A DNA stretch of 64,000 nucleotides from Patescibacteria group bacterium (GCA_041664365.1 JBAYKW010000002.1:85961-149960), one strand, 5' to 3'. Counted from the stretch's first letter, positions 31,378 to 34,618 are shown. A program made the numbers and translations. The notes: generated from the letters alone by a model not told the origin.

Positions 31378-31695
31378 TAGGCCCGCCCGGCTCGCCTTTG
31401 GCGAAGCCAAGGCGGACGGGGATAAGGGTAGTAGGTGTCATCATCGGGCTTTATCTTGTCATCTTCGGGCTTGACCCGGAGATCCACAAAAAGTAATGGA
31501 TTCCCTGATCGCCTCCGATGTCGGCGTCCGAGAATGACATTAAACACCTCCCCCGGAAATTATTTCTCTACCTAAGAACCCGGCATGTCCTTCCCCTCCT
31601 TATCAAGGAGGGGAGTAGAGAATTGTTACTATTTTAAAATCATGTTCCGGAGGGGTGGTAAACCCAAGGGTAATTTAATAGAAGTATTGGTGTGG
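31378..31695. repeat. Left copy of an imperfect GC-rich inverted repeat pair containing strong hairpins (noncoding).
   Basis: Sub-blocks ggacatgccgggttcttaggtagagaaataatttccgggggaggtgtttaatg, cccctcctt-atcaa-ggagggg and ggaggggtggtaaacccaagggtaatt recur as reverse complements at 34460-34615. gacccggagatcc and cttgtcatcttcgggctt recur inverted at 34380-34450. Confidence 0.7.
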
Positions 31696-31807
31696 TGGCC
31701 GGGCCCCAGGGTTTGGAGGATGTTTTGCAATTTTTTCTTAACTAAACAGCGCTTGATAATTGGCTAAAATAGGGGTAGGATGAAATTGTAATTATTTAGC
31801 TAATAAT

Positions 31808-32032
31808 ATGGATATATTTAAAGAATATTTAATCACATTTGGTTGGGGGATAACAGGTGCAATAACTATGGCAATTGCGCTACCGATTCTTCTCTGGGTG
31901 TTTGATAAATTTACACCTATTAATGAATGGGAAGAAATTAAAAAAGGAAACATTGGAGTAGCAATTATCATTGGAGCTTTAATAATTGGATTTGCTATTG
32001 TAATGGGTTTCTCAATTGTGCCTTCTTTATAA
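31808..32032 (+). CDS. Small two-TM membrane protein, DUF350-like.
   Basis: 74 aa with two TM helices separated by EWEEIKKGNIGVAIIIG, reminiscent of the DUF350 ELxxGNxAVAI motif. Confidence 0.4.
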   Translation: MDIFKEYLITFGWGITGAITMAIALPILLWVFDKFTPINEWEEIKKGNIGVAIIIGALIIGFAIVMGFSIVPSL

Positions 32033-32036
32033 TTTT

Positions 32037-32282
32037 ATGAAAAAGAAACTTCTAATTTTTTTATTAGTACTATTTCTTTCAAGTAGCAATGTTGCTTTTG
32101 CTCATCCTGGAAGAACAGACAGTAACGGTGGACATGTTTGTAGAACAAATTGCGCAAGTTGGGGATTGAAAACGGGGCAGTATCACAAACATAAGAAGGC
32201 TGTTAAGAAAAAGATTGTAAAAAAAGAAACAAAAAAAAGTTCTCATAAGAATGTAAAAACAATATCTGGTAAGAAAAAATAG
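32037..32282 (+). CDS. Secreted YHYH-domain-like small protein with a Lys-rich tail.
   Basis: Signal peptide MKKKLLIFLLVLFLSSSNVAFA, then HPGRTDSNGGHVCRTNCASWGLKTGQYHKH (HxGRTDxxGGHxC...YHxH pattern of YHYH proteins). Confidence 0.45.
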   Translation: MKKKLLIFLLVLFLSSSNVAFAHPGRTDSNGGHVCRTNCASWGLKTGQYHKHKKAVKKKIVKKETKKSSHKNVKTISGKKK

Positions 32283-32380
32283 TAATATAATATTAATTTG
32301 ACTCTCTTTTAATTGGAGAGTTTTTGATTGGAATAAAAAAACCGTCTTGGGATAAGACGGGGGCAAGGAGCGATATTCAC

Positions 32381-32941
32381 CTATCGATACAAAATTGTTC
32401 TGGTGATTGTTTTTCCTTCAACGAGCTTAACTACGTAGAAACCCCAGTTTTCTTCAGTAAGCACATAGTCGATGGTGTAGGTTCCTGCCTCGCGGAATTC
32501 TCGGTCCACGAGCACATCTACGACCCGGTCAGTAGGGTCCACGACCGACACAGTCACAGTGTCCGGCCTGGTGACTGTGTAGGTAACCAGGTTGCCACGG
32601 CTAGGTAGCGGGGCGGTGGTGGTGATTGGCGGTTTCTTGACGCCTCCTGCCACTGCGGGCGGAGGACCGTAGTTGACCCATCCCGATCCTTCTAGAACCC
32701 AGCCGTTGTTGTGGATGTCCACGAAACGGTCGCTCGACGGCAGGTGTGCCACTTCACGGGCGGGGATCGGGACGACACGTCCGGTGTTGCTCCATCCCAG
32801 TTTGTGGGCGAGGACCCAGATCTCGCCGTTCGATAGCAGGACAGCTTCGTTGCTCATCAGGAGCACTTCGACCGTATCTGCCGCCAAGGCACTAGAAAGT
32901 GCAAAGAGCACCAGAATTGCCGGCAAAATCAGGCGTTTCAT
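32381..32941 (-). CDS. Secreted protein with a C-terminal beta-sandwich resembling FlgD-Ig / T9SS-C-terminal-domain-like folds. GC-rich islet.
   Basis: Signal peptide MKRLILPAILVLFALSSALA. C-terminus GTYTIDYVLTEENWGFYVVKLVEGKTITRTILYR fits the G.Y...W......G.Y..KL....k pattern. Local GC is clearly above background. ORF extension to 33019 is unlikely. Confidence 0.5.
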   Translation of the reverse strand: MKRLILPAILVLFALSSALAADTVEVLLMSNEAVLLSNGEIWVLAHKLGWSNTGRVVPIPAREVAHLPSSDRFVDIHNNGWVLEGSGWVNYGPPPAVAGGVKKPPITTTAPLPSRGNLVTYTVTRPDTVTVSVVDPTDRVVDVLVDREFREAGTYTIDYVLTEENWGFYVVKLVEGKTITRTILYR

Positions 32942-33173
32942 CGGATTCCCCCTTCGCTTTGGGTTGTTGATTTGTGCCGGAAAGTTTCCTAGCTTACCAA
33001 TAGTTATGCATGTTGTCAAAGCAGGACTTTTTGAATATGCATCCTGTTTTCCGCCTGATCAAAAATCACTGAATTCGGGTGAAAGGGGAGGTTGGCGCTA
33101 AAACCGTGAAAAGTAGTATAAAATAGAGAGTTTTTCACGGTTTTATTGACAATACCGTGAAAACGATATATAA

Positions 33174-34073
33174 TTGTTATATATGCCTAAAATACTCAAG
33201 GTTTTCAATCAAATAAATTCGCTTCGTGAGCGATACTATAAGGCGTTAATCGGCAAAGACGCGCTGATTAAACTTATCGCGGAATCCGAAGTGGCTGAGC
33301 AAGTCTACAATTCCAATGCTATTGAAAATAGCACTCTTTCGCTTGAAGAAACAGAAAAAATATTATTGCAGATTGATCTGAATCGTTTTATTTCCGAGCG
33401 TGAAATTTTTGAAGCCAAAAATTTGGCTAGTGTGGTATCATACATTGATAAAAAAGCTAAGAAAGAAGAACTTTCCTTAGATATGATTTTGTCACTGCAT
33501 AAAATGTTGATTTCCAATATTCGGGGTGATATTGCCGGCCGATTCAGGAAAGACAATGAATTTGTGCGGGTTGGGAGTCATATTGCGCCAAATCCGAAAG
33601 AAGTAGTAGAACGTTTGGAAAAAATGTTGGTCGAATATAACGCAGCCAGTCATGAAAACATTATCAAGCGAATTGCAAAATTGCATTTGACTTTTGAATA
33701 TATCCATCCATTTTGTGACGGCAATGGTCGTATTGGAAGAGTGATAAATAATTACGCTCTAATTCGCGAAGGGTTTGTTCCGATAAATATAAAATTTATT
33801 GATCGGAAAAAATATTATGACGCATTTAGAGACTTTGATCTGAAAAACGATACTTCAATCATGGAGGAAATAGTCGGTAAAGCATTGACTAATAGCTATC
33901 ACAAGCGGTTGGCGTATTTGGAGGGTAAAAAAATTATTTCTCTGGTTGAATATGCCAGGGAAAATAAACTTTCCCATTCAAATTTGATAAACAAGGCCAC
34001 CCGGCAAACCATTGAAGCTTTTTTGGAAAAAGGAGTATGGAAGATCGGTATTGACTATGTTAAAAATAAATAA
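33174..34073 (+). CDS. Fic/DOC-family protein (putative AMPylase), class II with an N-terminal inhibitory motif.
   Basis: IHPFCDGNGRIGRVI is the Fic motif HxFx(D/E)GNGRxxR. N-terminal SNAIEN matches the (S/T)xxIE(G/N) inhibitory-helix motif. Confidence 0.8.
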   Translation: MLYMPKILKVFNQINSLRERYYKALIGKDALIKLIAESEVAEQVYNSNAIENSTLSLEETEKILLQIDLNRFISEREIFEAKNLASVVSYIDKKAKKEELSLDMILSLHKMLISNIRGDIAGRFRKDNEFVRVGSHIAPNPKEVVERLEKMLVEYNAASHENIIKRIAKLHLTFEYIHPFCDGNGRIGRVINNYALIREGFVPINIKFIDRKKYYDAFRDFDLKNDTSIMEEIVGKALTNSYHKRLAYLEGKKIISLVEYARENKLSHSNLINKATRQTIEAFLEKGVWKIGIDYVKNK

Positions 34074-34289
34074 TCATATGAAACTACAATTAGAAAAGTT
34101 TGGTCAAACATTACTTTCCAGAGAATTAGGATTGGAAAAATCAAGAGTCAATTTAGATTAGAAATTAGTATAACAGTTGAAAGTGTTCTGATGGGCACTT
34201 TTTTGTTTTTCAAATGTACATTGGTTTTGTAGAATAATAGAAAGAATCAACCAAAAGCTGGGGACCGGGGATGCATGGAAAGATGATAG

Positions 34290-34618
34290 AAAGAAACAGG
34301 AGAAGACCCCCGGAATAACACACATCCTTCGACTCTCTTCGTTCGCTCAGGAAATATTGCCTGAGTGTAGCGGAGCGGAATCGAAGGCTGTATTGTAAAT
34401 GGATCTCCGGGTCCTGCCTCGCCGGCAAGGCGGGCAAGCCCGAAGATGACATGGAGCGGGAGTGCCGTCAATTACCCTTGGGTTTACCACCCCTCTGGAA
34501 CATGATTTTATAATAGTAATAATACTCTGCTCCCCTCCTTTAAAAGGAGGGGAAGGACTTGCCGGGTTCTTAGATTGAGAAATAATTCCCGGGAGAGGTG
34601 TTTAATGCCATTTAAAGA
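34290..34618. repeat. Right copy of the imperfect inverted repeat pair (see 31378-31695).
   Basis: aattacccttgggtttaccacccctc, ctcccctccttt-aaa-aggaggggaag and ggacttgccgggttcttagattgagaaataattcccgggagaggtgtttaatg are reverse complements of blocks in the left copy. The internal order is partly permuted. Confidence 0.7.

Follow-up and report, generated by a model that had tools for sequence, protein, structure and literature searches.

A small gene islet of variable content between the DUF167 gene and ileS of a Patescibacteria genome, with a diverged inverted repeat and a Fic cassette

The segment considered here (positions 31378-34618) lies between the gene for a DUF167 protein and ileS in a 64,000-nt stretch of DNA from a Patescibacteria group bacterium (GCA_041664365.1, JBAYKW010000002.1:85961-149960). 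This stretch is referred to below as the window; coordinates are positions within the whole of it, except where another sequence is named. An earlier note described the segment as accessory DNA bounded by inverted GC-rich repeats and likened it to a composite mobile element, or a pair of miniature inverted-repeat transposable elements (MITEs) with four captured genes. Our analysis favours another reading: the segment is probably a flexible islet at an insertion/replacement hotspot between the core genes for DUF167 and ileS in a Kerfeldbacteria-like genus of Patescibacteria. At least four pieces would have arrived or been kept separately. These are an older resident operon encoding DUF350 and YHYH proteins; a GC-rich foreign gene preceded by a promoter and ribosome-binding site that are resident and AT-rich and would drive other GC-rich cargo in a sister genome; a self-contained Fic cassette; and two GC-rich non-coding blocks, which would be mosaics of palindromic modules here named M1, H, U, X, and Y. 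The inverted arrangement of the largest module, U, would be a by-product of reshuffling and not a pair of transposon ends.

Gene content between the DUF167 gene and ileS

The nearest named relatives of the window genome are Kerfeldbacteria. The location of the segment between the DUF167 gene and ileS, as given in the earlier note, was confirmed for both flanks by Pfam matches. The conserved flanks are:

31095-31373 (plus strand), DUF167/YggU gene (Pfam PF02594, E 4.8e-21), left flank, located beside ileS in all relatives examined
34624-34652 (plus), ileS promoter, TTGTCA-17-TATAAT (promoter scan 11/12), kept in loci L002, L003, L020, and L021
34673-37627 (plus), ileS (Pfam and homologues), conserved right flank

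Between these flanks, four layouts were found, listed here with the identity of ileS to that of the window:

Layout A, L003 (85%): a 413-bp spacer with no genes; the spacers of L004-L008 (71-73%) are also near-empty
Layout B, L002 (85%) and L021/L022 (at least 90%): genes for an S8 peptidase, DUF350, and YHYH; no U
Layout C, the window: DUF350, YHYH, the GC-rich gene, and Fic
Layout D, L020, the same sequence as L014 and L017 (90%): genes for a DNA methylase, HpaII, Vsr, SIR2, DUF87, a response regulator, and a zinc ribbon, followed by GC-rich PiT and PhoU_div genes (minus)

The empty and near-empty spacers of layout A bear out the view that the DNA between the DUF167 gene and ileS is accessory. 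Layout D is a 9.5-kb island of restriction-modification and SIR2/HerA genes with a GC-rich PhoU/PiT pair and one U. The defence-type part of it (L020 838-7532) encodes a 5-methylcytosine methylase, an HpaII-type endonuclease, Vsr, SIR2_2 together with HerA-like DUF87, a response regulator, and a zinc ribbon. The locus thus has the characteristics of a hotspot, namely conserved core flanks with four different contents, atypical GC, and a horizontally spreading Fic gene. U, the leader of the GC-rich gene, and the ileS-proximal junction are common to the window and layout D only.

A single sample, ERZ27249449, yielded layouts B, C, and D; the source contig of the window in it is k141_638568. According to cluster records, ileS and Fic also occur with the GC-rich protein on a second contig, of 150,046 bp. 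In two more relatives (L035 and L036; P0006 and P0007) the contigs end inside the 5' part of ileS, and assemblies seem to break at the hotspot.

The whole interval was not recovered as one block, either in relatives or elsewhere. The occurrence of the same four genes in related genomes without flanking repeats, which the earlier note had named as evidence against its reading, was found for two of the four, DUF350 and YHYH, in L002 and L021/L022. The interior of the segment appears to combine three compositional and evolutionary origins, and each of its transcription units has its own signals in promoter and terminator scans.

The inverted repeat

An inverted repeat is indeed present at the place described, and it is far beyond chance expectation. 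Its main component is U, a 143-nt unit the two arms of which are 91% complementary, with 13 differences (E 2e-44). The arms were delimited by a repeat scan, and the E value comes from a BLAST comparison of both blocks with the whole 64-kb window, in which no third copy was detected. The CCCCTCC/GGAGGGG hairpin reported earlier lies centrally in each copy (31592-31614 and 34531-34553).

31533-31675 (minus), left copy of U, an imperfect palindromic unit, 91% identical to the right copy and 92% to the L020 copy; predicted to form a long hairpin
34470-34612 (plus), right copy of U, ending 11 nt before the -35 box of ileS; same position as L020 9797-9939 and L014 3695-3837

Two smaller inverted pieces accompany U. 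One is H, with a 20-nt core at 95% identity and an extra inner stem in the right copy (31457-31486 vs 34400-34451); the other is X, a 17-nt core found innermost in each block (31699-31716 and 34255-34272). H is placed on one side of U in the left block and on the other in the right, so that the internal order is partly permuted, as had been observed. The repeat was also said to extend over about 250 bp at 80-90% identity. Its inverted nature held, but its extent did not: only about 165-215 nt of each block of about 320 nt is partnered. The unpartnered parts are M1 in the outer left block (31377-31421) and Y in the right block (34324-34399). The outer left end of the block is an independent module, M1, which resembles a repetitive extragenic palindrome (REP) and is present elsewhere too.

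Neither boundary choice is accompanied by a target-site duplication. The flanks of the blocks read ttattttaggga and ccatgttgtcaa, those of the U pair cggcgtccgag and taaagaccatg. Near-identical terminal copies were likewise not found, given the 13 differences between the arms. The ends of the 143-nt U, AATTAC...ACCACCCCTCCGGAA and TTCCGGGGGAGGTGT...GTCATT, pair imperfectly, and no parent insertion sequence (IS) with matching ends is known. As stated in the earlier note, no transposase is encoded inside the segment; Pfam matches and the gene table revealed no recombinase there either.

The single U of L020 (9797-9939) occupies the exact place of the right copy of the window, and each window copy is 92% identical to it. 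Among the three copies, which form a star, the private differences number 8, 5, and 5-6; this suggests that the inverted pair dates from about the time when the window genome and L020 separated. The window copies are 9% apart, approximately the same as the same-site copies in the two genomes, and this also indicates that the pair is old. U appears to be a low-copy module restricted to this lineage, with a right copy older than the sister split and a left copy that would be an old paralogue.

Searches for U elsewhere returned two copies in the window, one in the sister genome, and, by exact words, none in other lineages. Two exact-word patterns gave no matches in IMG/VR. Among GTDB species representatives, 8 exact-word matches were obtained, of which only L014 was genuine, the other 7 being chance matches in unrelated phyla. 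Two of the 3 exact-word matches in JGI metagenomes were due to chance, and the remaining one was the same contig as L014. These public scans needed an exact 18-20-mer, so that at 8-9% divergence each catches about one copy in 5-6. An nhmmer profile found no further U in any of the fetched loci, and the 23 kb of sister sequence retrieved (L020/L014) contained no second one. The copy count is accordingly two in the 64-kb window and one in 23 kb of sister sequence.

The blocks had no Rfam match at the gathering threshold; with E up to 5, only FtrB was returned, with 29 bits against a threshold of 66. A T-box was suggested by the string GGGGTGGTAAACCC in U. It was rejected because no T-box match was obtained and this string does not lie on the strand that ileS would require; a T-box-like GGGTGGTA had no score. 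The attC sites of integrons were considered too; no integrase occurs in the genes examined, and by inspection the ends of U do not fit GTTRRRY or RYYYAAC. Sites of the XerCD/pdif type were also dismissed, with no integrase and no core motifs seen on inspection.

The DUF350-YHYH operon

Identification of the first two genes of the segment as DUF350-like and YHYH-like was upheld by PF03994 and NF033223, respectively:

31808-32032 (plus), DUF350 membrane protein gene (Pfam PF03994, E 2.8e-13)
32037-32282 (plus), gene for a small secreted YHYH-domain protein (NCBIfam NF033223, 45 bits vs cutoff 30)
32300-32360, back-to-back terminators from the terminator scan: T1 (32300-32322, plus) for DUF350-YHYH and T2 (32342-32360, minus) for the GC-rich gene

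The operon (31776-32352) has the same position in L002 and L021/L022, with 82-84% nucleotide identity, and its homology with L002 and L021 stops at 32340-32352, at the back-to-back terminators. In BLAST of the window interval, neither U, X, and H nor the leader could be traced around DUF350-YHYH in L002 and L021/L022.

The GC-rich gene and its shared leader

The next two features of the segment are on the opposite strand:

32381-32941 (minus), gene for a GC-rich secreted protein of 186 aa; near-orphan, no Pfam match, base composition foreign
32942-33096 (minus), AT-rich leader/promoter region of the GC-rich gene, including a diverged duplicate of the ileS promoter at 33009-33045

In 200-nt windows, the GC content of this gene is 53-63%, compared with a mean of 42% for the window. 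The strand and the GC richness given in the earlier note were correct, while secretion is suggested by a signal-peptide-like N-terminus. In a word-indexed search the protein matched only itself; an exhaustive search yielded 21 weak relatives. These homologue searches revealed no donor of the gene, since the relatives were weak and unnamed.

The promoter duplicate (33009-33045 vs 34620-34652) was recognised by a repeat scan and by matches to L002. BLAST aligned the leader (32943-33153) with L020 9588-9799 at 89% identity. This homology ends at the start codon. Beyond it lie the orphan gene in the window and PhoU_div plus PiT in L020, and both cargoes are GC-rich. No conserved short core was visible by inspection at the cargo junctions. 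The leader of L020 at 9588-9740 carries the same ribosome-binding site, and the final few PiT codons run into native spacer.

Two other stretches with a GC content of about 60% occur in the 42% GC window, at 6922-7578 and 23649-24664. The former contains an orphan, secreted-looking open reading frame (ORF; 7008-7550, minus) and the latter an ORF of 369 aa without a Pfam match (23657-24766).

The Fic cassette

33097-34082 (plus), Fic cassette, comprising operator, promoter, and class II Fic gene; coding sequence 33186-34073 (Pfam Fic, E 1.5e-22)
34179-34202 (plus), Fic terminator, a 10-bp stem followed by a T run (terminator scan)

The Pfam match and an N-terminal motif, SNAIEN, which aligns with the inhibitory TVAIEG of FICD, the closest solved structure, agree with the earlier assignment of this protein as a putative class II Fic AMPylase. 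The active-site motif is HPFCDGNGRIGR. The promoter (33146-33174) is a consensus TTGACA-17-TATAAT that scored 12/12 in the scan. The half-site of a putative operator, ACCGTGAAAA, occurs three times, at 33103-33112 (plus), 33132-33141 (minus), and 33154-33163 (plus), and nowhere else in the window. The operator, an inverted pair plus a third site between the -35 and -10 boxes, is kept in distant copies of the cassette.

Homologues of the Fic protein number roughly 8000; the best 120 matches were 83-89% identical across candidate phyla radiation (CPR) lineages, and were named as Paceibacterota, Moranbacteria, Berkelbacteria, Peregrinibacteria, and others. The identity of the IleS protein outside the genus, by comparison, is only 55-60%. 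Nucleotide homology to unrelated contexts (L023-L034) is confined to exactly 33097-34082, at 79-81%. Among these contexts, one element carries an N6/N4 methylase and a type IV secretion system coupling protein, one site lies beside NDK and rpsL/rpsG, and another beside thrS/rsgA. U was absent from the contexts examined. With 83-89% protein identity across the CPR and the same span in unrelated contexts, the notion of Fic as mobile cargo holds, and we regard the gene as part of an apparently self-contained cassette that spreads widely among CPR bacteria. Literature searches gave nothing relevant on the spread of Fic in the CPR or on CPR MITEs.

L020 retains only the operator hairpin of Fic, fused directly to U. 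This arrangement is consistent with a deletion in the L020 lineage that would have removed Fic and X-Y-H between GACAATACC (33148) and GTCAATTACC (34467).

Non-coding modules and a RAYT gene

31377-31421 (plus), M1, an imperfect palindrome, GC-rich, REP-like, and headed by GTAGG (GTAGGCCCGCC...), beginning 4 nt after the DUF167 stop codon
31438-31495 (plus), H, a hairpin GTCATCTTCGGG-CTTGA-CCCGGAGATC preceded by a partial repeat of about 21 nt; inverted partner at 34400-34451
31699-31716 (plus), left copy of X, core CCGGGCCCCAGGGTTT, innermost in the left block; truncated, as seen by alignment with three fuller copies of X; terminator-like in the scan
34253-34451 (plus), X-Y-H' block: right copy of X (34253-34323), Y (34324-34399), and H' (34400-34451), in the same order as in L020 7545-7808
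6204-6719 (plus), gene for a REP-associated tyrosine transposase (RAYT; NCBIfam NF047646 equivalog, 112.9 bits vs cutoff 80, E 1e-32; Pfam Y1_Tnp)

The core of M1 is identical at the matching site of L020 (474-550), where 30 nt are nested within it, and also at a second L020 locus, 21761-21821, after an Oxidored_q6 gene. The window counterpart of the second locus (46495-46540) has no M1 and contains a different GTAG-rich sequence instead. M1 is thus a 44-nt element that is identical between loci and shows a clean presence/absence difference between genomes at the second site.

H occurs in L003 in two different spacers, DUF167-ileS and smpB-argS, within a 121-nt inverted repeat with 86% identity (7447-7562 and 3729-3849), and forms a short array in L020. 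One pair of its stem is T-A in the window and C-G in the L003 copies, which represents one compensatory change. An inverted pair of X (685-755 and 7519-7615) surrounds the defence island of L020. In L020 the terminator, cargo, leader, and operator are situated between H and U, unlike in the window, and no single inversion, insertion, or deletion accounts for the position of X-Y-H relative to cargo and leader in the two genomes.

The RAYT gene is located 25 kb from the segment, with REP-like palindromes just downstream at 6737-6768 and 6846-6905. Palindromes with a GTAGG head are dispersed in spacers of the window (23563-23592, 25718-25749, 28010-28190, and 48985-49040), some of them paired around genes. 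Of the features that define systems of REPs and bacterial interspersed mosaic elements (BIMEs), a RAYT gene in the genome was therefore found, and dispersed extragenic palindromes with a 5' GTAG head were found in the form of M1 and others, but not of U. RAYT is a candidate mobiliser of the GTAGG-headed REP-like modules.

Several further repeats were observed in the window. A stretch of about 140 nt of the RAYT ORF (6346-6482) is 72% identical to the downstream spacer at 6795-6931. The smpB-argS spacer (28010-28190) contains a cluster of REP-like palindromes (e.g. GGGTAGCTTGGATGACGTCATCCAAGCTACCC) related to the hairpin beside RAYT (6737-6768). Near-identical palindromes GTAGGCGCGAAT...ATTCGCGCCTAC at 23563-23592 and 25718-25749 enclose VanZ and the GC-rich ORF of 369 aa. 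A 170-nt direct repeat (48984-49153 and 49918-50085; 76% identical), with GTAGGTTCGAA...TTCGAAC and GCGAATGAATTCGC hairpins, flanks a LOG/lysine-decarboxylase-like ORF at 49140-49895.

Origin of the segment and alternative explanations

According to the reading proposed in the earlier note, ends bearing U would be mobilised in trans and the four genes would move as a unit. The inverted repeat is genuine, the termini of U are partly complementary, its long-hairpin fold is like that of MITEs, the interval is missing from some relatives, and lack of an internal transposase is expected for a non-autonomous element. Even so, we consider this origin highly improbable, and the repeats were not supported as the two ends of one element. 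DUF350 and YHYH are found at the same site without them. The right U is common to a genome that has it at the same place beside the ileS promoter together with different cargo and no second copy, which speaks against a MITE pair with captured cargo. The ends are 9% diverged without a target-site duplication; exact-word scans found U in no other lineage, and Fic cassettes elsewhere do without it. Recombination between the inverted copies of U, or of X, could instead flip 2.5-2.8 kb of the segment. A 143-nt repeat with 91% identity is long enough for RecA-dependent inversion, and inverted X pairs surround the variable part in two genomes. An invertible segment is nevertheless very unlikely: the assembled window contig has a single orientation, the shared leader and the cargo are oriented alike relative to ileS in the window and in L020, the window genes examined include no site-specific recombinase or integrase domain, and flipping would change no promoter logic.

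Two explanations concern the function of U, and we regard both as unlikely. U may be a structured non-coding or cis-regulatory RNA, transcribed toward ileS at the right copy. The block has a stable fold (z -3.4) on the strand matching the right-copy orientation, which has more predicted pairs than the other (44 vs 30, several of them G-U). U is also GC-rich in an AT-rich genome, and its same-site copies are 92% identical, compared with about 87% for the adjacent ileS DNA. Against this, no Rfam family was matched, even at E up to 5; there are no compensatory changes among the three copies of U, although with only three copies covariation is uninformative; neither a promoter nor a terminator specific to U was convincing in the scans; the promoter and gene of ileS do without U in L002, L003, and L021; and the two copies face different neighbours. 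Alternatively, foreign genes might be installed behind a resident leader by a recombination or cassette-exchange system not yet recognised, with U and X as its sites. In the sister genome the shared leader adjoins U and is followed, precisely from the start codon on, by different GC-rich cargo, and X pairs bracket different islands in two genomes. However, no recombinase was found nearby, no conserved short core was seen at the cargo junctions by inspection, and, since only two genomes share these features, common descent explains the shared positions. It is similarly doubtful that U, X, and the leader form the scaffold of a Patescibacteria cassette-exchange locus of this unrecognised kind, in which foreign, possibly host-derived, GC-rich genes would be placed behind a resident promoter and ribosome-binding site and islands swapped between inverted X/U sites without a local recombinase.

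The preferred reading remains a flexible islet at a hotspot. Its GTAGG-headed modules would probably have been spread by the RAYT of the genome, and modules and short homologies may have served as substrates for deletions, duplications, and translocations; the proposed loss of Fic from the sister genome between GACAATACC and GTCAATTACC would be one example. Several points weigh against this reading. The relatives were retrieved with ileS as an anchor and amount to about 10 related loci. On both sides U is close to where the lineage-specific DNA ends, and in two genomes the variable part is enclosed by copies of X, so that these modules may have a role in bringing in or exchanging DNA. No recombination intermediates were observed. 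Because of the exact-word requirement, moderate copy numbers of U could have been missed by the public scans. Finally, U has no GTAG head, which leaves its mobilisation by RAYT unsupported.

Other features of the window

The window also contains a tmRNA (27066-27454, 113 bits) beside smpB and one tRNA (17224-17298). Two giant ORFs are present, one of 1630 aa without a Pfam match (18646-23538) and one of 2973 aa (52850-61771).

Significance and comparison with known systems

Genomes of CPR bacteria (Patescibacteria) are small and are usually described as poor in mobile elements. The locus described here shows how they still vary, with one spacer holding four gene sets in co-occurring relatives, including toxin-type Fic or defence genes. 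The inverted repeat itself defines no new mobile element; a hotspot islet and REP-like mosaics are known kinds of structure, here in an under-studied phylum. Perhaps weightier than the repeat are the RAYT gene with REP-like repeats in a CPR genome, the Fic cassette with its conserved operator and about 85% identity across deeply diverged CPR lineages, and GC-rich foreign genes behind a shared leader. All three could inform work on the exchange of genes between these epibionts and their hosts. The cassette and the leader shared by different foreign genes are the most promising leads.

MITE-flanked units, such as integron mobilisation units and the MITE-bracketed integrons of Acinetobacter, and IS composite transposons are similar to the segment in having inverted non-coding repeats of about 150 nt around a few accessory genes, with no transposase inside. 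In such units the ends are near-identical, target-site duplications are present, and the unit recurs as a whole. None of these three properties was found for the window segment.

The segment resembles flexible islands at hotspots, of the 'replacement' and 'additive' types, and defence islands in having the same core flanks with different contents, atypical GC, and toxin or defence-type cargo (Fic in the window; restriction-modification and SIR2/HerA-type genes in L020). Unlike these, the islet is very small (3.3 kb), has no tRNA, integrase, or mobility gene, and resides in a reduced CPR genome.

The non-coding modules are comparable to the REP/BIME systems and REPINs (REP doublets forming hairpins) with RAYT of E. 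coli and Pseudomonas. Shared features are short extragenic palindromes, GC-rich and headed 5' by GTAG(G), located just after stop codons, mosaic blocks of variable order, nesting, and a single-copy RAYT gene with REPs beside it. The 143-nt U differs from them in its low copy number and the lack of a GTAG head. Enterobacteria have hundreds of REP copies, and the numbers here are tiny by comparison. The dRS3 repeats and intergenic mosaic elements (NIME) of Neisseria and the pneumococcal BOX elements are likewise built of non-coding repeat modules whose flanks are conserved and whose inner stems vary; the modules differ in order between copies and cluster at the borders of variable DNA. The likeness shown is one of arrangement and not of sequence, and no phage or integrase is linked to the window modules.

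Among class II Fic AMPylases (FICD/HYPE; PDB 4X2C/4X2E, 3CUC), the predicted window enzyme has the same active-site motif, HPFCDGNGRIGR, and an N-terminal inhibitory motif. It differs from them in that its gene is accompanied on its travels by a conserved operator of three sites, which overlaps a consensus promoter.

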